NCBI GenBank assembly: GCA_965224085.1
Contig: CBDCYI010000005.1
Location: 288,001 to 352,000, forward strand
Length of the DNA stretch: 64,000 bases
Reading direction: 5' to 3'
Source: Candidatus Marinacidobacterales bacterium
GTDB taxonomy: Bacteria > Acidobacteriota > Vicinamibacteria > Marinacidobacterales > SMYC01
In this document: in pieces, positions 34,436-53,959 of the stretch
How the letters are laid out: each line of letters starts with the position of its first letter
Numbering within the stretch: position 1 is the stretch's first letter
Made by a program: the position numbers and the translations under genes
The notes under the pieces: model-generated
Seen by the model: only the letters and a program-made list of their open reading frames with translations
Told to the model about the DNA's origin: nothing
The model's database searches: none

Positions 34436-35533
34436 TCAAGCGCCCCAAACTTTTTCCAAAACGCGAATCCAATTCTCTCCCATTGCCTTGCGAATTTCAC
34501 CGGTAGACCAGCCCCGCTTGATAAGACCCCGGACAACATTGGGCAGCTCAGCAATGCTTTCGAAACCCTTTACATAGGTCCGATAGTAGTTATATATTTC
34601 TGGCGACATCACCGCCGGATTAGCCCCCCTCCGGACCTTATCTGCATCCTCACTAATATTATCCGTGCCCAGTCCGACATGGTCTACTCCCACCAGCTTA
34701 CGGATGTAATCGAATTGATCGAGGTACGTATCCAACCCGACCTGAGGACTATTTTTTAGATGCGAATTTGTTGGGTTACGTGACATTAAAGAGCTCATCG
34801 TAGCGAGGCCAATGACTCCCCCGGTCTTAGCAATGGCCTCGATCACGCGGTCACTGTCATTACGTGGATTATTGTTGAGGGCGAGTACATTGGTATGAGT
34901 GTCAACCACAGGTATCTCAGGCGCCATTTCAATCGCATCCAGGGTTGTCTTCTCGCCGGTATGGCCTCCCACATCAAGCACGACCCGCAGCTTGTGGATC
35001 TCTTCCACCAGGCGTCGACCTGCACGAGTCAGGCCGACGTGAGCTTCAAGACATCCCCCGCCGTAGATATTGACGACGTTGTAGGCGATGCCACAAAGCC
35101 GCAACCCCTGCTCGTAGAACTCGGCCACGGGCGGACGAGGATCCCCCCGCGATCGATTATGCTCGGTGCCCAGGAAGTCAGCCGATTGCGGCCCATAAAT
35201 CTGAGCAATCTTGCCCTGCTTATAGGCTTGCTGGATTTCTCTCACAGTGGTTGCCAACACCATTTTATCGGGAAACGGTATCCTCCCTCCTCCTCCAACT
35301 CGGGTAGTCAACCCTACAGCCTTCAGCTTCTTTAGGTACGTCTCATTCATCGGTCCACCATTACATCCATCGGAAACTATGGTGGATCGAAGGATAGCCA
35401 TCGGATCACGACCAGGACTGCGATCCGACTCATCCAGCTGGAAAGACGCCATGGCCCACGGCTCGGCTGCTCGTACAAGCCCAGCTGTTGCCCCTACAAA
35501 AGCAACATTTCGTACAAAATCTCTTCTTTTCAT
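34436..35533 (-). CDS. Membrane dipeptidase (M19) family protein, Tat signal
   Basis: GLTRAGRRLVEE, THTN, PRNDSD, KTGGVIG, VGVDHVGLGTD, GENWIRV; MKRRDFV signal; GAGGAGG RBS. Confidence 0.85.
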   Translation of the reverse strand: MKRRDFVRNVAFVGATAGLVRAAEPWAMASFQLDESDRSPGRDPMAILRSTIVSDGCNGGPMNETYLKKLKAVGLTTRVGGGGRIPFPDKMVLATTVREIQQAYKQGKIAQIYGPQSADFLGTEHNRSRGDPRPPVAEFYEQGLRLCGIAYNVVNIYGGGCLEAHVGLTRAGRRLVEEIHKLRVVLDVGGHTGEKTTLDAIEMAPEIPVVDTHTNVLALNNNPRNDSDRVIEAIAKTGGVIGLATMSSLMSRNPTNSHLKNSPQVGLDTYLDQFDYIRKLVGVDHVGLGTDNISEDADKVRRGANPAVMSPEIYNYYRTYVKGFESIAELPNVVRGLIKRGWSTGEIRKAMGENWIRVLEKVWGA

Positions 35534-35549
35534 GATTCCTCCTCAACGT

Positions 35550-35686
35550 CCGAAAGCTCACACAGAATCGGTAGTAGAGCCAGACGGCGTGGCTGATGAT
35601 CTCGGGCGCAAATCGATATCCGTGGTAGCTCGGCGTGTCACTTTTCATCGGCCTAGTTTGCCAGACACGGCCTGAACTTGACAGCA
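35550..35686 (-). mobile_element. IS6-family remnant: left inverted repeat and first ~33 transposase codons
   Basis: MKSDTPSYHGYRFAPEIISHAVWLYYRFCVSFR is an IS6 transposase N-terminus; IR-like TGCTGTCAAGTT at 35675-35686. Confidence 0.85.
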
Positions 35687-35761
35687 ATGGCACCGCCCGC
35701 GTGGGCGGAGGTCATCGGGGAGTGACCGAAATCGTTCGTTCACTCGAAAGTACCTGTGCAG
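35685..35761 (+). mobile_element. Non-autonomous mini-element made of the left and right ends of the IS110 at 43094-44771
   Basis: 35675-35727 is a near-identical reverse complement of 44729-44781; 35740-35754 matches the IS110 right end 43097-43111 at 14/15. Confidence 0.75.
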
Positions 35762-36020
35762 CTGTTCAGCCCCAACTACCTGCGCTTCGCTTCCGCACCA
35801 TCCAGCCGCCCGGTAGCGTTCACGTCACCGCGCGATTCGCATTCTAGCTTGCTGAAATCCCGGGCTCCTCCAAGGAGCAGGACGTGAAGGATGTTCTCGA
35901 AGAGGAGACATCGAGAGGTATTAGCCGGTGTTGCAACTAGCTTTCCCATGTAGTAGGAATGCTTGGTTGACCTATGCTTTTCGGTGAGTCGTCTTTGACT
36001 TAATCCAAGGGAGTGAGCAG

Positions 36021-39000
36021 ATGCCCATCATCGCAAAAGGCGCGACGGGCGCCACGGTGTTGGTTTTGCTTTCGGCGGCGCTCGCGGGCCAGCCGTCGCC
36101 AACGGCAGAAGAAGCGTGGGACGTGACCTTGGCTCGCGGCGAGACCCGAACCATCGACTTCACCACCGACGAAGGCACCTGGATGACGATCGATGTCTTC
36201 CCCGATGGCGAGCGGCTGGTCTTCGACCTCCTCGGCCACATTTATACTCTGCCGGTAAGCGGCGGCGAGGCCACCCTTTTGACCACGGACTCCGGCGTTG
36301 CCATCAACTTTCAGCCCGCCCTTTCCCCCGACGGAGGGCGCATCGCTTTCATCTCCGATCGAGGCGGGCAGAACAACCTCTGGGTCATGAATGCCGACGG
36401 CTCCAACGCGCGCGTGGTTGAGCAAAACCTCAAAGTGCGCCACTCCCTTCCCGCGTGGACTCCCGATGGCAACTTCATCGTCGCCCGGCGCGTTCCCCTG
36501 GAGCAGCGACAGCGACGAACACAGGAGCTCTGGCTCTATCACGTCGGGGGGGGAAAAGGTGTAAGGCTCACCGATGCCAAGAAGCATCCTAGCGCGAGCG
36601 GCCCTTCCGTGAGCGATGATGGCCGCTTCCTTGACTTCAGCGTCGAGATGCCCAACATCGAGGATCCGGCGAAGGGCAAAGTCCAGCTCCGCCGCCTCGA
36701 TCTGAAAACGGGTGAGGTGCTCAGAATCACTGAGGGAACCGAGCGCGGAGCCGGGGGCTCCGCCCGCACCTCGAGCGGGGGAGGGTTTACCCCGCGGGTC
36801 TCCCCCGACGGCCGCTACCTGGCATTCGGGCGGAGGCTCGCTTCCGGAACGTTTTCTTTCAAGGGGCACCAGCTCGGGCCGCGCACGGCGCTCTGGATCC
36901 GGGATCTCGAGACCGGTTCCGAAACCCTCGCACTGGACCCGGTGGAGCGCGACCTGCAGCAGCGCAGCCGGGACTGGTCCGGCTATCTGCCCGGTTACTC
37001 CTGGGATCCGACGGGTCGTTTCGTCTACGTGGCGCAAGGAGGCAAGATCCGTAAAGTGGATGTGGAGAGCCGCGAGGTCGAGACAATTCCGTTTCGGGCG
37101 CGGGTGGCGCGAACGATTTCGGAAATGGCCTACCGGCGCTTCCGTATCGACGATGCCGCTCCGCTGAAGATCCGGTTCACCCGTTGGCCCGCCCTCGCTC
37201 CGGACGGAAGCGCGTTGGCTTTTCAGGCGGTAGGCAGGATCTGGCACCAGGAGCTTCCCGATGGCTCTCCCCGCCGCCTTACCTCAACTTCCTTCTCGCC
37301 ACATGAGTACGCCCCCGCATGGTCTCCCGACGGCGAGTGGCTCGCCTTCACGAGCTGGTCCGACGAGGAGCGTGGTCATCTCTTCAAGGTGGGCGCCCGC
37401 GGGGGAGAGCCAGTACGACTGACCGTCGTCGCCGGGGAGTACCTTCATCCCGTCTGGACACCGGATGGCACCGGCATCGTCGTGGTGCGGAGCTCGGGTG
37501 CGACCCTCAGGGGGCGCATGCTGAACGAGAACGCCTGGTACGACTTGGTGCTCGTGCCCGCCGATGGCGGGGAGCCGCGGCACGTGGTGACGGTGAACCC
37601 TCCGATGGGTCGCATCAGCCACCGCCGCCACGTAGTGCAGCCTTCCTTCGGTCCCGAAGGCCGGTTGTATTATCCGGAAATGATCCTTGCGGAAGGCGAG
37701 GATGGCGATGCGCGAACCGAGCTTCGGTCGGTTCGGCTCGATGGCCTCGACAAAAGAACTCACTTGACGCTGCCGTTCGCGGACGAAGCCGTCCTCTCCC
37801 CCGACGGAAACTGGTTGGCCTTCGAAGAGGGTGACAACGTCTACTTGAACGCCGTTCCCACGAACGGTATCGGTGGCACACCCCTCGAGCTGGAGCGTGA
37901 GGAAAAGCCCGTCTGGGCCATCACTCCCCTTTCGCACGAGGGTGGGAATTTCCCGCGATGGGTCGGAGCCACCACGCTCGTCTTCGGAAGCGCGGACAAG
38001 GCCTTCGCCTATGACGTCGACACCAAGCAAACGAAGACCTACGACATCGACCTCGAGCTGCCCCGCGATCGACCGATGGGCACTCTTGCTCTCACCGGGG
38101 CGCGCGTCATCACCATGGAGGGGAACGAGGTCCTCGAGGAGGCGGACCTCGTGGTGAAAGATGGTCGCATTGCAGCCTTGGGGCCGTCCGGCTCGGTGGC
38201 CGTCCCCCCTGCTGCCCGGAGAGTGAGCGTCCAGGGCAAGAGCATCATTCCCGGGCTGGTGGACCTCCACACCCACAATCACCGGAGGCCGAACGGCCTT
38301 TTGCCTCAGCGCGATTTCGAGATGGCTGCCGTGCTTGCCTACGGCGTCACAACGTCGCTGGACAATTCCATGTGGTCGCAAAACGTTTTCCCTCAGGCGG
38401 AGATGGTGGAAGCGGGCGAGCTCGTCGGGTCTCGCACGTTCAGTACGGGAGATCCCCTTTATGCGGGTGATCACGCGCGCCAGAACGAGCTCAAAGGCTC
38501 CGAACAAACTCACGAGGAGGTGAGGCGGCTCAAATCCTATGGCGCGGTGTCGTTGAAACAGTACCAGCAGCCCGAGAGGAGGCAGCGACAGTGGATCACC
38601 GAGGCGGCGCGTCGGGAAGGCCTGATGGTGACCGCCGAGGGCGGTGATTTCCTCTACGTCCTCACGATGATCATGGACGGTCAAACCGGCTGGGAGCATC
38701 CCATTCCGCAAGTACCGGTTTACCAAGACCTGGCCGAGTTCCTCGGCAGGGCCAACGCCTACTATTCGCCGACTCTCGTGGTCGCGGGACCCGGACCCTG
38801 GAACGATCAATACTTCACCCAGGAGGTGGCTCTCTGGAAAGATGCGAAGCTTCGCCGGTTCGCACCCTGGAGAAAGCTCGAAGCGCACACACGCCGCCGA
38901 GAGCTTCGGCCGAAGACGGATTACACCTACCCGCTACTTGCGCAGTCGGTGGCCGATATTGTTGCCGCCGGCGGATTCGGCGCGATCGGCTCCCACGGCC

Positions 39001-39341
39001 AACAGCACGGCATCGCTTCTCACTGGGAAATCTGGATGCTGGCGGAAGCGATGAAGCCCCTCGAGGCGCTTCGGGTGGCCACCATCCATGGAGCCATGAT
39101 GATCGGTGTCCAAGAGGACATTGGCTCCTTGAAGCCGGGCAAGCTCGCCGATCTCCTGGTGCTCAACGGAAATCCCCTCGAGGACATCCGCGAGACCGCC
39201 AATATCCAGTACGTCGTGAAAGGCGGTCGTCTCTATGACGGTGACACCTTGGATGAGATCTGGCCCCGCCAGAGGGAGTTCGGTCGCTTCTTCTGGGAAA
39301 TGGAGGAAGCACGTCCGGACGATGTCAAAGTGATCAAGTAA
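36021..39341 (+). CDS. TolB/PD40 beta-propeller + amidohydrolase fusion, secreted
   Basis: SPDG repeats; IIPGLVDLHTH, GSHGQQHG, GSLKPGKLADL. Confidence 0.9.
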   Translation: MPIIAKGATGATVLVLLSAALAGQPSPTAEEAWDVTLARGETRTIDFTTDEGTWMTIDVFPDGERLVFDLLGHIYTLPVSGGEATLLTTDSGVAINFQPALSPDGGRIAFISDRGGQNNLWVMNADGSNARVVEQNLKVRHSLPAWTPDGNFIVARRVPLEQRQRRTQELWLYHVGGGKGVRLTDAKKHPSASGPSVSDDGRFLDFSVEMPNIEDPAKGKVQLRRLDLKTGEVLRITEGTERGAGGSARTSSGGGFTPRVSPDGRYLAFGRRLASGTFSFKGHQLGPRTALWIRDLETGSETLALDPVERDLQQRSRDWSGYLPGYSWDPTGRFVYVAQGGKIRKVDVESREVETIPFRARVARTISEMAYRRFRIDDAAPLKIRFTRWPALAPDGSALAFQAVGRIWHQELPDGSPRRLTSTSFSPHEYAPAWSPDGEWLAFTSWSDEERGHLFKVGARGGEPVRLTVVAGEYLHPVWTPDGTGIVVVRSSGATLRGRMLNENAWYDLVLVPADGGEPRHVVTVNPPMGRISHRRHVVQPSFGPEGRLYYPEMILAEGEDGDARTELRSVRLDGLDKRTHLTLPFADEAVLSPDGNWLAFEEGDNVYLNAVPTNGIGGTPLELEREEKPVWAITPLSHEGGNFPRWVGATTLVFGSADKAFAYDVDTKQTKTYDIDLELPRDRPMGTLALTGARVITMEGNEVLEEADLVVKDGRIAALGPSGSVAVPPAARRVSVQGKSIIPGLVDLHTHNHRRPNGLLPQRDFEMAAVLAYGVTTSLDNSMWSQNVFPQAEMVEAGELVGSRTFSTGDPLYAGDHARQNELKGSEQTHEEVRRLKSYGAVSLKQYQQPERRQRQWITEAARREGLMVTAEGGDFLYVLTMIMDGQTGWEHPIPQVPVYQDLAEFLGRANAYYSPTLVVAGPGPWNDQYFTQEVALWKDAKLRRFAPWRKLEAHTRRRELRPKTDYTYPLLAQSVADIVAAGGFGAIGSHGQQHGIASHWEIWMLAEAMKPLEALRVATIHGAMMIGVQEDIGSLKPGKLADLLVLNGNPLEDIRETANIQYVVKGGRLYDGDTLDEIWPRQREFGRFFWEMEEARPDDVKVIK

Positions 39342-39360
39342 TCGCCAAAGGGAGGTCGTC

Positions 39361-39640
39361 ATGAGACGTCTTTTATTGATTCTCGCACGGATCGTTTTCC
39401 CGGTCATGGCAACGGCGCAGACGCGTCCCATGACCTACGAGGACATCCTCGGTGTCAAGCGCCCCGCCGACCCGCAAAATCTCCCCCGACGGATCCCGCA
39501 TGGCCTTCGTGGTGAGTGAGCGGGACCAGAAGGAGGACGTCTACAACGAGGACCTGTAGGTGGTCGCCGCTCCGGAAGGGAATCTGGTGAGGCTGACCTA
39601 TGCGCAGAAGAGAGATCACTATCCGAGGTGGAGCCCGGTG
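39361..39640 (+). pseudogene. N-terminal stub of S9 peptidase-like gene (frameshift, stop, truncated)
   Basis: GGAGG RBS; signal peptide, RPMTYEDIL, ISPDGSRMAFVV, in-frame TAG, PRWSP. Confidence 0.7.
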
Positions 39641-39879
39641 GGAGACACTCCTCAACCGCCTTGCCCTGTTTGCTCGAGTTCTGCTACGCTCACCCGGACT
39701 CAATCGGAGTGCACCGTCCCATCCCAGTGGGGAAATTTCGTGCGGACCGGGGCCGGACACGTTTGAATTTTCCTAATCCTAGTTTCGCCAGAAGGACACT
39801 AGCAAGCCTCCGCGTCGAACCGGCGATGCAAGGCTCACCAAGCCTGCTTATCTCTGTAAACAAACGTCTGGAGGAAGGC

Positions 39880-42800
39880 ATGAGAGGTGCAAGAGTATTT
39901 TTCTGGCGCTTGAACCTGGCTCTAGTGGTGACGGTCGGCCTGCTATGCAGCCCGAACCGGGCTCAGGCACAGCTCGTTGATGAAACTATTCTCGACAACC
40001 TTTTGTTGCGCTCCATCGGCCCCGCCGTCATGGGCGGACGCATCCATGACCTGGCCGTGGTGGAAGATCGTCCCTGGATCTTCTACATCGGTTCGGCTTC
40101 GGGAGGACTTTGGAAGACCACCAACAACGGAACCACCTGGGATCCAGTCTTTGACGATCAGGGGACTTCCTCGATCGGCGACCTCGCTCTCGCGCCTTCC
40201 GATCCCGAGATTGTCTGGGTGGGTACTGGAGAGCCCAATAACCGGCAAAGCTCGAGTTTCGGCGACGGGGTCTATAAGTCGACGGATGGCGGGAAGACCT
40301 GGAAGCACGTCGGCCTGCGCGACACCCATCACGTCGGACGCATCGTGATCCATCCCCAGGATCCCGACACCGTTTACGTCGCCGCTCTGGGACACCTGTG
40401 GGGACCCAACGAGGAGCGGGGCCTTTTCAAGACGACTGACGGGGGAAACACCTGGGAAAAGATCTTATATATCGATGAAGACACCGGAGTCGTCAACGTA
40501 GCCATGGACCCGGTGAATCCCCGGATTCTCTACGCCGCCGCGTACCAGCGACGGAGGACACCCTGGGGATTCAGTGGAGGGGGGCCGGGAAGCGGCCTCT
40601 ACAAGAGCTCCGACGGCGGGAAGACATGGAAGAAGTTGACCGAGGGCATTCCTGATGGCCCGACAGGCAGAATCGGTATCGATGTCTATCGCAGCGATCC
40701 CCGAATCCTCTATGCGCTGATAGAAAACCGTGAGGGAGGGGTTTTCCGATCGGAGGACCGGGGCGAAAGCTGGAAGAGGGTCAATGAGCTCAACCCCAGG
40801 CCCATGTACTACAGCCAGATATGGATTGATCCGAGCGACTCCCGGCACGTTTACGTGCTGGGCGGGCCCTTTTATGTTTCCGACGACGGCGGGAGGACGT
40901 TCGAGCAAAACACTGCCATGACGCCCACGTTCGATGTGGGAGTGCACGGCGACCACCATGTGCTGTGGATCGACCCCGCCAACGGCAAGCATCTTATCCT
41001 GGGGAGTGACGGCGGTCTCTACTTCTCCTGGGACAGGAGCCGCACCTGGGACAAGGTAAACAATTTGCCCATAGCCCAGTTCTACGCAGTGGGCGTCGAC
41101 ATGCAGAAGCCTTACTTCATCTACGGCGGTGCTCAAGACACTCACTCCTGGGGAGGGCCGAGTGCTACCCGGCACCACATTGGAATCATTAACTCCGACT
41201 GGGTTCAGATTGGCCCTGGCGACGGCATGTACCAGCAGGTAGACCCCGCCGATCCTAATATCATCTACACCGAGTCACAGGGAGGAGACATCGTTCGCCT
41301 CAACCATAAGACCGGGGATCGGAAAGACATCAAACCGCACCCCGGGGACGGCGAGTCGGAGTATCGGTTTCACTGGACTTCCCCCATCCTCATTTCCCCT
41401 CATGACCCGAAGACCGTCTATCTGGGCGGAAATCGGCTCTTCATCTCGAAGGACCGGGGAGAAACTTGGACGGCCACGGAGGATTTAACCCGGGCAGAGG
41501 AACGAGACAAGCTTCCCATCATGGGGGTAGTTCCCGACGAGACCACGCTCTCGCGGCATGACGGGGTGGCGGCCTGGGGTACCATCACCACCGTGGCCGA
41601 GTCTCCGCTGACTCCCGGCTTACTTTACGTGGGCACTGATGATGGCATTGTCCATGTGTCGCGGGATGGGGGTCGAACCTGGACTAGCCTGCAGGATAGG
41701 TTCGCCGGCGTGAATGAAGAAAGAGCTACGGTGAGCCGCGTCGTAGCCTCGCATGCCGAGCCGGGTAGAGGCTACGTCACATTCGACCGTCACCAGCTGG
41801 ATGACTTCTCCCCTTATGTCTTTACCACCGACGACTACGGGAACACCTGGAAGTCCATTGCCGGAAATCTGCCTCGGGTAGGTTGGGTTAATGTTCTCGC
41901 CGAGCATCCTCGAAACCCCAATCTTCTCTTCGTCGGTACGGAGACGGGGCTCTTCGTATCGCTGGATCGGGGCAACCGGTGGATTCGGCTTACAGGTAAC
42001 TTCCCGACCGTCCCGGTAGATGATCTCGTGATTCATCCCCGGGACAACGACCTCGTGGTGGGCACTCACGGCCGTTCCATCTACATCCTGGACGACCTCG
42101 CGCCGCTCGAACAGCTGAGTGAAGAGGTGCTGGCTTCGGAGGTCCACTTGTTTGACATCCGCCCAGCCATGGAGTTCGTGCTCGTCAAGCATGAAAGCTA
42201 CGGGGCCCAGCGGCAGTTCATCGGGGCAAACCCGCCTTTCGGCGCAGTCATCTCTTACTACCTGAAGTCGGAACCAGCGGGAGACGTCGAGCTTTCCATT
42301 GTCGACAGGAGCGGAAAGGCCCTTCGTGAGATCTCCGGGACAAAGCACTCGGGGGTAAATCGGGTGAGCTGGGACCTACGCCTTGCTGCTCCTGAAGGCG
42401 TTGACCAGGCGGTTGGCCCCCTTGTCCCCCCGGGACGCTACACGGTTCGGCTTAAGTTAGGTAAAAAGGAGCTGGCCAAACCGCTCGAGGTGGAGGCTGA
42501 CCCACTCTTTCCGGTCCCGGAGGAAGAGCAGGTTGCGCGCTACGAATTCCTCGTCACCGTGAACGGCTTACGCCAGACGATCCAGGAGGCCATCGATTCG
42601 ACAGAGGCAATTTCAGAACAGGTCCAAAGCCTTCTCGAGGGCACGCAGGGAGATCCTGAGGCACCGGAGGCTGTGATTTCGGCGGCTCGAACCATTGCCG
42701 AGGAATCGGAAAAGATCCGGCGCGCACTGGCGGGCGATGGTGTAGCACCGTTCTTCGCTGGACAGAGCCTGCGCTCGCGAGCAAACCGGCTCTTCACAAA

Positions 42801-43041
42801 CCTCGATGGTCGCGTCTTCTTCACTCCCTTCGGAAACGCTGTCCGTTACCCTCAGGGCACGCTGAGTGGGCCGACGCGCGTTCAGCGGGAGCGGCTGGCG
42901 TCGCTCACCCGGCAGCTGGACGAGCAGCTGGAGTTGCTGAACCGGCTTAGCCAAACCGCGGTTTCGGATCTAAACCGCCAGATGAACGAGGCGAACCTGT
43001 CCCATATCAAGGTGGGTGCACCGGTGCGCAGGCCGCGTTAG
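39880..43041 (+). CDS. VPS10/sortilin-like BNR (Asp-box) repeat glycosyl-hydrolase-like protein, paralog A1
   Basis: RSIGPAVMGGR, many S/TxDGGxTW Asp-boxes, VHGDHH, GAQD, GTHGRS; ATG 39880 behind GGAGG. Confidence 0.9.
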   Translation: MRGARVFFWRLNLALVVTVGLLCSPNRAQAQLVDETILDNLLLRSIGPAVMGGRIHDLAVVEDRPWIFYIGSASGGLWKTTNNGTTWDPVFDDQGTSSIGDLALAPSDPEIVWVGTGEPNNRQSSSFGDGVYKSTDGGKTWKHVGLRDTHHVGRIVIHPQDPDTVYVAALGHLWGPNEERGLFKTTDGGNTWEKILYIDEDTGVVNVAMDPVNPRILYAAAYQRRRTPWGFSGGGPGSGLYKSSDGGKTWKKLTEGIPDGPTGRIGIDVYRSDPRILYALIENREGGVFRSEDRGESWKRVNELNPRPMYYSQIWIDPSDSRHVYVLGGPFYVSDDGGRTFEQNTAMTPTFDVGVHGDHHVLWIDPANGKHLILGSDGGLYFSWDRSRTWDKVNNLPIAQFYAVGVDMQKPYFIYGGAQDTHSWGGPSATRHHIGIINSDWVQIGPGDGMYQQVDPADPNIIYTESQGGDIVRLNHKTGDRKDIKPHPGDGESEYRFHWTSPILISPHDPKTVYLGGNRLFISKDRGETWTATEDLTRAEERDKLPIMGVVPDETTLSRHDGVAAWGTITTVAESPLTPGLLYVGTDDGIVHVSRDGGRTWTSLQDRFAGVNEERATVSRVVASHAEPGRGYVTFDRHQLDDFSPYVFTTDDYGNTWKSIAGNLPRVGWVNVLAEHPRNPNLLFVGTETGLFVSLDRGNRWIRLTGNFPTVPVDDLVIHPRDNDLVVGTHGRSIYILDDLAPLEQLSEEVLASEVHLFDIRPAMEFVLVKHESYGAQRQFIGANPPFGAVISYYLKSEPAGDVELSIVDRSGKALREISGTKHSGVNRVSWDLRLAAPEGVDQAVGPLVPPGRYTVRLKLGKKELAKPLEVEADPLFPVPEEEQVARYEFLVTVNGLRQTIQEAIDSTEAISEQVQSLLEGTQGDPEAPEAVISAARTIAEESEKIRRALAGDGVAPFFAGQSLRSRANRLFTNLDGRVFFTPFGNAVRYPQGTLSGPTRVQRERLASLTRQLDEQLELLNRLSQTAVSDLNRQMNEANLSHIKVGAPVRRPR

Positions 43042-43133
43042 GTTAGGCCATAGCTGCTCCGCAACGTCGCCGAAACCTTCGTGTACTTCCGCTGACGGTA
43101 CTTTCGACTGACACTCCCGGCCGAAGGCATTTT

Positions 43134-44522
43134 TCATGATATGGATTGATCGGGAACGAGGCTGAAGCCGAGTCGGGTAGCTTTGCGTCGGAGATTACTC
43201 AGGAGGCGTTGCTGGTATTGCCTTTCATAGGCGTCCTGACCGAGCTCAATGAACTCCTCTCCAGTCGCAAGCATGCGGAAGTAGATGGTCGCTATTTTAC
43301 GGGCGGTAGCTGTGATGGCCTTTGGAGCACCTCGTCGCGATCGGATTCGTCGATAGAAAGCGCCGAGCGCGGTTTGGGTATTGCGGACAGCGCACGCGGC
43401 GAGGCGAAAGAGTTTTGCAGCACGACTGGAGCTCATTGGGGTTGCCCGGCGAAAGATTCGACCAGCGGACTCCTTATTATTCGGTGCGAGAGCTAGCCAT
43501 GAGGTGAAGTGCTTGTCACTTTTCCACGGGCTCATGTCGCAACCGGTTTCTCCTACGAGCTGCAGAACGGCATAGCTACCTAAGCCGGGAACCCTGGTTA
43601 GGTCCACCCCCGTGAGTCCCAATAGAGACTCAGCGAGCGGAAAGCGCGGCCCGTTGCCGCTACGCGCTCGCCGTGTCCGTGGTTTCGGCTTAGGCCGAGC
43701 GTCCTGAGGCCGGGTCTCCAATTTGGACAGGCATCTCTCGATCCGCTTGTCACAGTCTTCCATTTTCTCTTGATAGAAATCGTACAACTCCACCGACTGT
43801 TGAAGAGCGAAAACATGCTCGCTCCGATAGTTACCTTCTAAGGCTTTCGCGATCGTGGCCTCATCGTTGTGGCAACGTTCATGCCTCAGTTTTGCTAGGT
43901 CACGAGGATCTCGCTCTCCTCTCAAGATCGCTCGGATGATCGCAAGGCCGGTGACTCCGGTCACGTCGCGCAGGACGTGTTGTAGCTGGAGCCCCATTTG
44001 GTTGAGCGCTTTGTGCATATGCTGAATGTGGCGAGCCGCTGACTCCACCAGCGAGCTTCGTTGGCGGGTGTATGCCCTTAGCTCGCAAATCGCCGATTCC
44101 GGCCGAAAGGTTTTTGGGAGTAGCCCGAATGTATGCAGCTGTTGCAGCCACTCCGCATCCGACACGTCTGACTTGCGCCCAGATACGTTTTTCACTTTGC
44201 GAGCATCGACCAGATAGACTTCAAATCCCTCGTCTTCCAACAACTCGTACAGTGAAATCCAATAAACTCCGGTCGACTCCATCGCCACCGTGCACACGCC
44301 GCACGCCTTCAGCCAATTGGCCAGCTCTCGCAGCGAGCATACAAAGCTCTGAAACGTGCGGACATGTTCGCCCTCAGGAGTGCGCCCCTTCGGGACTGCC
44401 GCCACGATTGACTCCGCTCCAATATCAATCCCTGCAGCATCTAGATTTACCGTGTCGAGCTCGTGCTCCAATTTTTTCCGTCTTGCTTGACGACTGCTTT
44501 TTGTCCTGACGCGACGTGCCAT
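43134..44522 (-). CDS. IS110-family DEDD recombinase (transposase)
   Basis: AAGIDIG, AMESTGVYW, RKSDVSDA (DEDD); ESAG catalytic Ser motif; KAITATARK; AAGGAG RBS. Confidence 0.95.
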   Translation of the reverse strand: MARRVRTKSSRQARRKKLEHELDTVNLDAAGIDIGAESIVAAVPKGRTPEGEHVRTFQSFVCSLRELANWLKACGVCTVAMESTGVYWISLYELLEDEGFEVYLVDARKVKNVSGRKSDVSDAEWLQQLHTFGLLPKTFRPESAICELRAYTRQRSSLVESAARHIQHMHKALNQMGLQLQHVLRDVTGVTGLAIIRAILRGERDPRDLAKLRHERCHNDEATIAKALEGNYRSEHVFALQQSVELYDFYQEKMEDCDKRIERCLSKLETRPQDARPKPKPRTRRARSGNGPRFPLAESLLGLTGVDLTRVPGLGSYAVLQLVGETGCDMSPWKSDKHFTSWLALAPNNKESAGRIFRRATPMSSSRAAKLFRLAACAVRNTQTALGAFYRRIRSRRGAPKAITATARKIATIYFRMLATGEEFIELGQDAYERQYQQRLLSNLRRKATRLGFSLVPDQSIS

Positions 44523-44544
44523 TTCTCGCTCCTTTCGGCGCAAC

Positions 44545-44765
44545 CAGGAGAGAGGGGCGATTCAAAACATTCTTTCGAACGGGGTCATGCCTCGCGACAT
44601 GCCACCACGGATACTCCCGCTAACCCTCCAGACCTTGCTGTCAAACGGGCACTGAGCACCATCGTACCTTCGGCCTTGACTCCCGGCTGCACTCGATCGG
44701 AGTCTACTTCCTCCCACAGATCTCAAAGGGTCAGTCTCCGATTACCTTCGCCCGCCCGGGCGATG
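44545..44765 (-). ncRNA. Putative IS110 bridge RNA
   Basis: Structured leader (ATCGGAG...CTCCGAT stem; CCCG...CGGG stem) with loop TTGACAGCAA (44635-44644) identical to the flank at 44769-44778. Confidence 0.6.
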
Positions 44766-44846
44766 CCATTGCTGTCAAGTTGAGCTGGTGACTGACATGA
44801 GCATGAATAGCGTCGACCGATGATCGTCCGGCGCGACCTCCAGTAA

Positions 44847-44886
44847 GTCAATGGCGCGACAGGTTCTCGTCAATGGCGCGACAGGT
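44847..44886 (+). repeat. Perfect 18-bp direct repeat GTCAATGGCGCGACAGGT x2 (22-bp period)
   Basis: 44847-44864 and 44869-44886; a third partial GGCGCGAC at 44830-44837. Confidence 0.85.
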
Positions 44887-45082
44887 CCGGGTCTAGTCTG
44901 CGAGCCACTCGCCGGAAGATTGTTTCCGCTTTGGCAGATGCGGACTTGGCGAACCTGGCAAAGCGTAGAGGACGCTGGGAGAACGACTCGCAACGAGCGG
45001 AGAATGTCCTCAGCTTGAAGGACGAATTGAGTGGCAACGACCTCCTCCAGGGCAAGTTGTACGAGGTGACTGCCACCGGGGG

Positions 45083-45345
45083 CATGGACTCCCCACGCCG
45101 GATCAAGAGAAAACGTTCTTCGTAATAGTCATCCGCGATTCGCTTTTTTTGTGGGCCACCGGGAGGGGTCGTAAAGGGTTCCTTGTCGAAGCATCGCAAT
45201 GGCGATGGGGAGAATGCGGTCCATGACGCCTCTGAGAGCTCTGGCATGGCTGTGGCCTCTGTCACGAAGCCGGTCGTAGTGTTCTTTGAAGTGGGGGTCG
45301 TGCAAAACGGCAGTGCGTGCCCAATGGTGGAGAGCATTATTGAGG
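45083..45345 (-). mobile_element. Remnant of a second, different IS110-family element (transposase C-terminus and right end)
   Basis: NALHHWARTAVLHDP..YDRLRDRGHSHARALRGVMDR..AMLRQGTLYDP; terminal GTGGGGAGTCCAT. Confidence 0.7.
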
Positions 45346-45564
45346 GGCAAAGAGCGAGCTCTCCTTCATTTCCGCCAGCGCATGTGATGTTTCATCGGCC
45401 CCTGTACTGGCGCTCGAAGCGCAACTCCCCACTGGATGTCCATCACAAAAGAATTGCCGGCACGCATGTCCATTCCTGGCGCTAGGAGCGCAGGGCGACG
45501 TATGGCGTTGCCGGCAAGCTGCTGACGAAATCGAAAATAGTCCAAGCTCATCGTGATATTTGCT

Positions 45565-53836: not shown

Positions 53837-53959
53837 CTTCGCCATCGATCGGTAACATGCTCCGCGACGTCGCCGAAACCTTCGTGTACTTCCGCTGACA
53901 GCAAAGGGGCCAGCCTCACAAAAGGGCGTGGGTCGCCGGTTGCCGAGGCTGGCCCCAAA

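Follow-up and report, generated by a model that had tools for sequence, protein, structure and literature searches.

What is the short segment that separates an IS6-family inverted repeat from its own last four base pairs in a 64,000-nucleotide stretch of DNA (the window) from a Candidatus Marinacidobacterales bacterium, and how did it come to lie there? The genome (G000; assembly GCA_965224085.1) has 12 contigs and 6.87 Mb, and the window is C5:288001–352000 (contig CBDCYI010000005.1). A first-pass annotation, made from the letters alone, had described a 77 bp non-autonomous IS110 derivative at this place. We conclude that the segment, 35685–35750, is probably one copy of a non-autonomous derivative of a bridge-RNA-guided insertion sequence (IS) of the IS110 family, resembles a MITE (miniature inverted-repeat transposable element), and would be moved in trans, presumably by the recombinase of a full-length element. 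Its ends match the donor ends of such an element, it occupies the same site and core, and it is found in several contexts, unfilled sites being present as well. What it has kept are the two ends that make up the donor site and a subterminal hairpin.

The miniature element and its borders

The features at and around the segment, and the full-length element with which it is compared, are the following.

35538–35684, minus strand: IS6-family remnant, comprising the left inverted repeat and the first 35 transposase codons (ATG at 35648)
35675–35684, plus strand: AACTTGACAG, the target's left half and inner portion of the IS6 inverted-repeat tip; AG core at 35683–35684
35685–35750, plus strand: miniature IS110-type element, 66 bp with one AG core copy counted in, its borders set by comparison of filled and unfilled sites
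35693–35708, strand-neutral: hairpin 1 of the miniature, a 6-bp GC stem with a 4-nt loop, the same hairpin as in the full IS110
35720–35745, strand-neutral: hairpin 2 of the miniature, an interrupted 6+4 bp stem covering the private central segment and right-end bases
35751–35754, plus strand: TACC, the target's right half: the final 4 bp of the IS6 inverted repeat, severed from the rest by the insertion
43101–44771, minus strand: full IS110-family element, 1,671 bp including one AG core, with TACC at 43097–43100
43134–44522, minus strand: its recombinase gene, 462 amino acids (Pfam PF01548 DEDD_Tnp_IS110, 7e-25; PF02371 Transposase_20, 2e-8)

The first 43 nucleotides of the miniature (35685–35727) are identical at 36 of 43 positions to the left end of the full IS110 (minus strand, from 44771), a match with E ~1e-11 in a genome-wide blastn search. 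Some 12 nt downstream of this stretch follows TCACTCGAAAGTACC (within 35675–35761), which agrees with the right end of the full element, TCAGTCGAAAGTACC, at 14 of 15 positions, and the earlier description of an IS110 left end of ~43 bp joined through ~12 bp to a recognisable right end is thus borne out by sequence comparison. The two elements are identical in their first 8 bases (CAATGGCA) and in their last 7, core included (TCGAA-AG), and they agree at 10 of the last 11. Only left-end positions 1–43 of the full element are retained, and in its 66 bp the miniature has no open reading frame and no guide-RNA region. It thus lacks the features of an autonomous IS110 (a recombinase gene and a guide-RNA region), of which the recombinase is present in the full element.

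The miniature starts with CAATGG and finishes with CGAAAG. Its junctions read GACAG/CAATGG on the left and CGAAAG/TACC on the right, with AG as the common dinucleotide; of the core AG/GCA proposed in the first pass, AG is found at both junctions and GCA is not reproduced. The preceding AACTTGACAG also stands before the full IS110, as had been noticed. Its form (AAC, AAT or AAG) depends on the context upstream and not on which insert follows; this 10-mer is therefore target DNA. By itself it is not rarer than chance (three matches in the window at no more than one mismatch, and at least three in 39 of 100 shuffles), so that its significance comes from its context and not its rarity. On the right, TACC is assigned to the IS6 repeat because intact, unfilled IS6 ends read ...TTGACAGTACC and then pass into unrelated flank, and since these four bases are not part of the insert its length is 66 bp and not 77 bp. 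Miniature and full IS110 both insert at the AG of the target consensus AAYTTGAC-AG-TACC.

The IS6 remnant that carries the miniature is truncated beside the start of a dipeptidase gene. Its 35 encoded residues (35538–35648, minus strand) are identical at 29 of 35 positions to the N-terminus of the intact 234 amino acid IS6 transposase of the genome (Pfam PF13610 DDE_Tnp_IS240, 6e-38), which confirms the attachment to a recognisable IS6 transposase start. The remnant is of a different type from the 806-bp IS6 element discussed below, and an unfilled homologue of its end lies at C5:2215643.

The ends of the miniature, CAATGG... and ...CGAAAG, are not inverted copies of each other, and terminal inverted repeats are therefore absent from it; its two hairpins are internal and separate from its ends. 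The pair flanking the stem of hairpin 1 is T-A in the full IS110 and C-G in the miniature by sequence comparison. The DNA fold with two hairpins is stable on either strand (z = -3.9 on the plus and -4.1 on the minus strand; none of 200 shuffles was equally stable). An E-value scan of 35000–45500 against Rfam matched no family, and scans of 35400–35900 and 43000–44900 found no promoters or terminators.

The full IS110 itself occupies a AACTTGAC-AG-TACC site in an IS6-like repeat remnant (44772–44797), and its ends are common to copies at 99.7–99.9% identity. We note that a 42-bp stretch beyond the IS6 tip that hosts it (43030–43096) recurs 97.6% identical 10.8 kb away (53858–53899); this seems to be sequence downstream of two paralogous genes and not part of a mobile element.

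Copies, carriers and relatives

A blastn search of the genome with an 80-mer made up of the 10-base target half, the element and TACC gave 33 matches, which fall into five classes.

Full-length miniature, 96.2–100% identity: 19
Degenerate miniature: 1
5'-truncated miniature: 2
Fragment of the 3' part: 1
Left end of the full IS110, 85–87% identity: 10

TTGACAG precedes all 19 full-length miniatures and all 10 full IS110 left ends, and CGAAAG followed by TACC is found at 21 of 21 miniature right ends and 12 of 12 full IS110 right ends in the genome. Two objections raised in advance, that the segment might be single-copy and that its right-end match might be fortuitous, are answered by these counts and by further copies in 8 of 40 related genomes. 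The 19 full-length copies are distributed as follows.

Proximal end of the 806-bp IS6 element: 13 of 19
Repeat tip that also holds a second IS110-type element: 4 of 19
A third context: 1 of 19
IS6 remnant in the window: 1 of 19

All copies of the miniature appear to have a single origin, because they are 96–100% identical to one another, match the resident IS110 at only 36 of 43 positions and have a private central segment in common. This bears on the possibility that each copy is a deletion scar, formed in place by internal deletion of a full IS110. A solo fragment of the full element at C11:1174774–1174826 in the same genome, which consists of the target half and left-end bases 1–43 at 100% identity, breaks exactly where the left-end similarity of the miniature stops, which speaks for this possibility; the miniatures, in contrast, all carry the same 7 left-end differences from the full element and the same central segment, and independent deletions would not converge in that way. 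Repeated scarring is accordingly a most improbable origin, and of the earlier alternative "MITE or deletion scar" the first half stands and the second does not.

The genome contains ~29 near-full copies of the 806-bp IS6 element, whose ends are GGTATTGTCAAGTTGA and, on the transposase-proximal side, GGTACTGTCAAATTGA. These are short terminal inverted repeats that begin with GG, as IS6 inverted repeats typically do. Intact proximal ends read outwards as ...AATTTGACAGTACC and then pass into unrelated DNA, and in filled copies the insert, miniature or full IS110, sits between GACAG and TACC. No matching 8-mers that would represent 8-bp target-site duplications were seen by eye around IS6 copies, filled or unfilled; such duplications are commonly lost in the IS6 family through cointegrate events. 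The proximal ends of the 29 near-full copies are in the following states.

Intact miniature: 13
Damaged miniature: 3
Full IS110: 2
Unfilled, perfect site (GACAG-TACC): 6
Unfilled, GACAATACC (GACAA-TACC): 3
Unfilled, TTTTACAGTACC: 1
TTCGAAAGTACC, footprint type: 1

Outside these 29, a third full IS110 is found where IS6 aligns only in part. Unfilled TTGACAGTACC sites number 10 in the genome, 6 of them in the 806-bp IS6 and 1 in the homologue of the IS6 type of the window. The opposite IS6 ends also read GACAATACC and are never occupied by miniature or full IS110. An AG core appears to be required for insertion, because the GACAA-TACC ends (3 proximal ones and all the opposite ends) are without exception unfilled.

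With 13 of the 19 copies in one carrier it has to be asked whether the miniature is only a passenger, which entered once or a few times long ago, has since spread by riding its carriers (IS6 and larger duplicated segments), also between genomes, and has no mobility of its own today. The filling state of the carriers is difficult to reconcile with this. The three IS6 carriers of the miniature variant 16C>T/18T>C differ from one another at 4, 21 and 23 of ~756 positions, no difference separates one filled IS6 copy from two that are unfilled, and the copies most closely related to filled ones are often empty, or hold another variant or a full IS110. Because filling does not follow IS6 sequence relationships, these patterns speak for repeated gain (or loss) of the miniature and not for co-propagation with one carrier lineage. 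Transposition of a filled carrier should moreover be hindered by the splitting of its repeat 4 bp from the tip. On this point the passenger explanation has something in its favour, since after insertion 9 of 11 bases of the outer end (GGTACTTTCGA...) still agree with the IS6 tip as it was before (GGTACTGTCAA...), and the carrier could perhaps still transpose; we think, even so, that insertion probably disables or silences the IS6 end.

The related genomes point the same way. Strong matches to the 80-mer were obtained in 8 of the 40 (G002, G003, G010, G012, G016, G021, G025 and G033, from two families), and many of these copies are 100% identical. Among 40 copies from five related genomes, TTGACAG stands before all 40 and TACC after 34, with one-base variants of TACC after the other 6, and their left contexts form 13 distinct classes. 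Together with the type in the window this makes at least 14 unrelated left contexts in six genomes that have only the 14-bp tip in common, which, with the identical variants in IS6 copies 21–23 differences apart, supports the first-pass argument for independent insertions at one target. A passenger would account for those copies in the relatives that have both flanks in common, and so are duplicates of larger units, and for the persistence of miniatures where no complete copy of this IS110 was found. In view of the many contexts we nevertheless regard a purely passive history as decidedly unlikely.

Beyond these relatives the 80-mer was absent from all of 400 other genomes sampled across the phylum (2 candidates scored per genome) and from plasmids, and the 43-mer had 0 matches in viral contigs. 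No clean filled and unfilled pair was found at an orthologous site; the synteny with G002 matches up to 35543 and then diverges. Part of the stretch is found in 21 rows of public sequencing runs. The filled arrangement is seen in contigs from three studies, X1, X2 and X7 (one contig covers 35577–35700 and another begins at 35726, 0 differences each), and X10, a diverged strain, has no cover at 35778–35947. Repeats of the IS6 end and the miniature are abundant in the communities sampled by four public runs, because the contig depths at 35540–35777, when summed, exceed those of the single-copy flanks by a factor of hundreds; this factor does not stand for a copy number.

G000 and G021, which are placed in different families, have 100% identical IS110 recombinases, and the 66-bp miniature is 100% identical across several genera (G010, G012, G016 and G021). 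Because of this identity across families and genera, recent horizontal spread of both elements is suggested.

Possible traces of recombination have the sequence AAYTCGAAAGTACC, in which the TTGACAG of the target is replaced by the TCGAAAG of the element. This sequence is found 5 times in the 41 genomes (the reversed control pattern 0 times); one occurrence is a miniature variant, one lies in unrelated DNA, and three are at repeat tips that read AAYTCGAAAGTACC and hold no element.

G000, C4:1695360–1695373: footprint tip
G010, C1:7453687–7453700 (L127): footprint tip
G002, C1:1242186–1242199 (L128): footprint tip

The same two specific substitutions are therefore seen in three genomes and three contexts, and that they arose three times in different carriers by chance is unlikely by our own informal estimate. 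The footprints are best explained as the result of past recombination, for which imprecise excision or an aborted single-strand insertion would be the possible routes.

A second, unrelated IS110-family element uses the same 14-bp IS6 tip on the opposite strand and at another AG (GGTAYTGTCA-AG-TTGA). It is ~1.49 kb long and encodes a recombinase of ~428 amino acids that is 37% identical; copies lie at C9:13660–15151 and C4:27887–29377 in G000, with ~6 more. The tips in which 4 of the 19 miniatures sit are also occupied by this element. Near C4:1724700 and at C4:29377 its right end is joined through AG to its own left end, which is like the head-to-tail junction of a circle or of a tandem copy.

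Candidate guides and a proposed route of movement

Two 8-mers in the 249-nt non-coding left end of the full IS110 are candidates for bridge-RNA guides that read the target and the donor.

44638–44645, minus strand: candidate left-target guide UUUGACAG, left-end positions 127–134, with the sense of the target's left half plus core
44572–44579, minus strand: candidate left-donor guide UUCGAAAG, left-end positions 193–200, in the same sense as TCGAAAG

The candidate target guide UUUGACAG matches the IS6 target TTTGACAG at 8 of 8 positions and the CTTGACAG of the window at 7 of 8. TCGAAAG, matched by UUCGAAAG, forms the last 7 bases of both the full IS110 and the miniature. The two 8-mers are 66 nt apart and CCCG stands before each. 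The same layout is found in 16 related IS110 loci (42–53% protein identity); with the element of the window included, the second 8-mer matches the right end of its own locus at 7 of 8 positions in 14 of 17 loci, and the first matches a site 122–142 nt upstream at 7 of 8 or better in 8 of 17. The junctions in this test were located by the match itself, so that the consistent positions are the actual evidence. For families whose borders were set independently by copy comparison, the first and second guides match at 7–8 of 8 and 7 of 8 (the element studied here), 8 of 8 and 7 of 8 (L009), and 7 of 8 and 6 of 8 (L016). In an RNAalifold consensus of the 17 sequences a covarying 5-bp helix encloses the first guide, a hairpin precedes each guide, and the loops have the sense-matching guides on their 3' side. 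The minimum-free-energy fold of the whole left end (z = -2.05) is uninformative alone.

In the element of the window two motifs could pair with (A)GTACC and are candidates for right-half guides: GGUAC, on the 5' side of the putative target loop, and, 10 nt beyond it, GGUGCU. Neither is convincing: the position of GGUAC fails in most of the 11 related loci where it could be checked, and UGGUGC is conserved regardless of target. A column-by-position covariation scan for right-half guides gave no diagonal above ~0.56.

On this basis the following mechanism may be proposed. A complex of recombinase and bridge RNA from a full-length element would bind the ends of the miniature through its donor-binding loop and AAYTTGAC-AG-TACC through its target-binding loop, donor and target would recombine at the AG core, and the miniature would come to lie within the IS6 inverted repeat, 4 bp from its tip, and so split it. 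By analogy with IS621 (see below), the bases kept by the miniature would be precisely those read by the donor guides. For physical reasons a double-stranded circle of 66 bp is unlikely, and the small size of the miniature argues against one as its intermediate; a single-stranded circle or direct transfer of the top strand would better suit a 66-nt element folded into hairpins.

Several observations weigh against this explanation. Complementarity scans, which return many short matches, did not identify the right target guide (RTG) and right donor guide (RDG). The size of 66 bp is very small for a double-stranded circular intermediate. Complete IS110 copies (at least 99% protein identity over residues 1–462) are present only in G000 (7) and G021 (6); G003 has one 5'-truncated copy and G002 a fragment, and this protein query found no copy of this IS110 in G010, G012, G016, G025 or G033; G027, flagged as unpublished, is used for none of these statements. 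Genomes rich in miniatures and without a complete copy of this IS110 by that query are G010 (at least 22 matches), G012 (13) and G016 (6), and the 41–51% identical IS110 relatives there do not share the ends of the miniature. No closer full-length parent was found in the 41 genomes, and, besides the left-end agreement at only 36 of 43 positions, the base 8 from the right end differs (C versus G). The contigs of four public runs hold only the filled arrangement and no joint across the locus, and contigs cannot show rare excision or circles. Finally, the concentration in the 806-bp IS6 makes some spread by carrier duplication possible.

Part of this would be explained if a different IS110-type element, with exactly matching ends, had fathered the miniature or still moves it, the resident IS110 being a cousin with the same target. 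The left end is 84% and not nearly 100% identical to that of the resident element, miniatures occur in genomes that lack it, and 100% identity across genera suggests a source that was recently active. No such element was found, however, in the 41 genomes, where the IS110 relatives have unrelated ends, and the bases adjacent to the core are identical to those of the resident IS110 (8 at the left end and, core included, 7 at the right); by the precedent of IS621 it is these that guides read. We consider a separate parent of this kind unlikely. The miniature does appear to outlive or outrange its only known relative, as is usual for non-autonomous elements.

A wider picture can be drawn only tentatively, and we consider it rather unlikely as a whole. 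The miniature might travel as a hairpin-folded single-stranded circle or by top-strand transfer, and a family of such small elements would then be natural evidence for the single-strand (copy-out) route of IS110 transposition that preprints now debate; the three AAYTCGAAAGTACC footprints might be aborted single-strand insertions fixed by mismatch repair; and the IS110-type elements (the second one included) and the miniature might be hyperparasites that silence IS6 ends across an order of marine Acidobacteria.

The locus has practical implications too. Bridge recombinases are under development as programmable genome-editing tools, for which the minimal donor and the strandedness of the intermediate are practical questions, and a natural 66-bp element that is found at dozens of sites and keeps ~8 + 7 core-adjacent bases and a hairpin is a ready-made candidate for a minimal donor. 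One 14-bp IS6 tip serves as a landing pad for two IS110-type elements and a miniature, which probably inactivates IS6 copies. In annotation, the miniature accounts for a recurrent 66-bp "extra" at IS6 ends in these marine Acidobacteria.

Comparison with known systems

Classical bacterial MITEs are derivatives of IS elements with DDE transposases, and are small, non-coding, present in many copies, structured and dependent on a helper. The miniature is like them in being short, non-coding and multi-copy, and differs in having no terminal inverted repeats, no duplication beyond the 2-bp core and a strictly sequence-specific insertion. It is not a MITE in the strict sense, because the terminal inverted repeats are missing.

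IS4321 and IS5075 are reported by Partridge and Hall (2003) to target the terminal inverted repeat of another transposon. They resemble the present elements in being IS with a DEDD recombinase that enter the terminal inverted repeat of another element at a single fixed position. The differences are that the present elements belong to another subgroup, with the non-coding region upstream of the gene (the IS110 type), that the carrier is IS6 and not Tn21, and that a miniature uses the same site.

A model for guidance is IS621. Its bridge RNA (PMC11208160, PMC11208158) has left-target and left-donor guides in the same sense as the top strand to the left of and including the core, together with right-half guides, shorter than these and complementary to the top strand; with the RNA supplied in trans, a donor of 22 bp suffices. 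In excision the same four guides act on the two junctions (PMC13626964). The element described here shares with IS621 a 2-nt core in target and donor and 8-nt same-sense left guides in the non-coding left end. It differs in that its core is AG where that of IS621 is CT, and in that its candidate guides lie on the 3' side of their loops and those of IS621 on the 5' side. A short donor would be a further likeness, at 22 bp in IS621 and 66 bp for the miniature if it is mobilised as proposed. The seekRNA is needed to move "a cargo flanked by IS ends" (PMC11187229). According to two preprints (10.64898/2026.08.31.748434 and 10.1101/2025.10.25.684509), what IS110 elements excise is mainly one strand, or the top strand is transferred directly, and a third (10.64898/2026.08.14.744561) deals with very small IS110 elements without a 5' untranslated region, for which a trans-acting bridge RNA was inferred.

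A close counterpart is MITEPpu9 of Pseudomonas putida KT2440, the MITE-like partner of the IS110-family element ISPpu9, which is listed in ISfinder and proposed to use the ISPpu9 transposase in trans (PMC12288879). A MITE-like relative of IS110 is thus already in print. Both elements are short, lack a recombinase, are present in many copies and are flanked by ends like those of the IS110 family. According to the same source, MITEPpu9 carries a small-RNA gene, ssr9, has repetitive extragenic palindromic (REP) sequences as targets and often adjoins its parent element. We found no description of a cargo-less miniature this small, or of targeting to an IS6 tip, in open-access papers and bioRxiv. 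Compared with MITEPpu9 the present miniature has only 66 bp and no cargo, is targeted to the IS6 tip, is found in several genera and is 16% diverged from the only related full-length element found; the cargo-less 66-bp form and the targeting of IS6 tips are what is new here.

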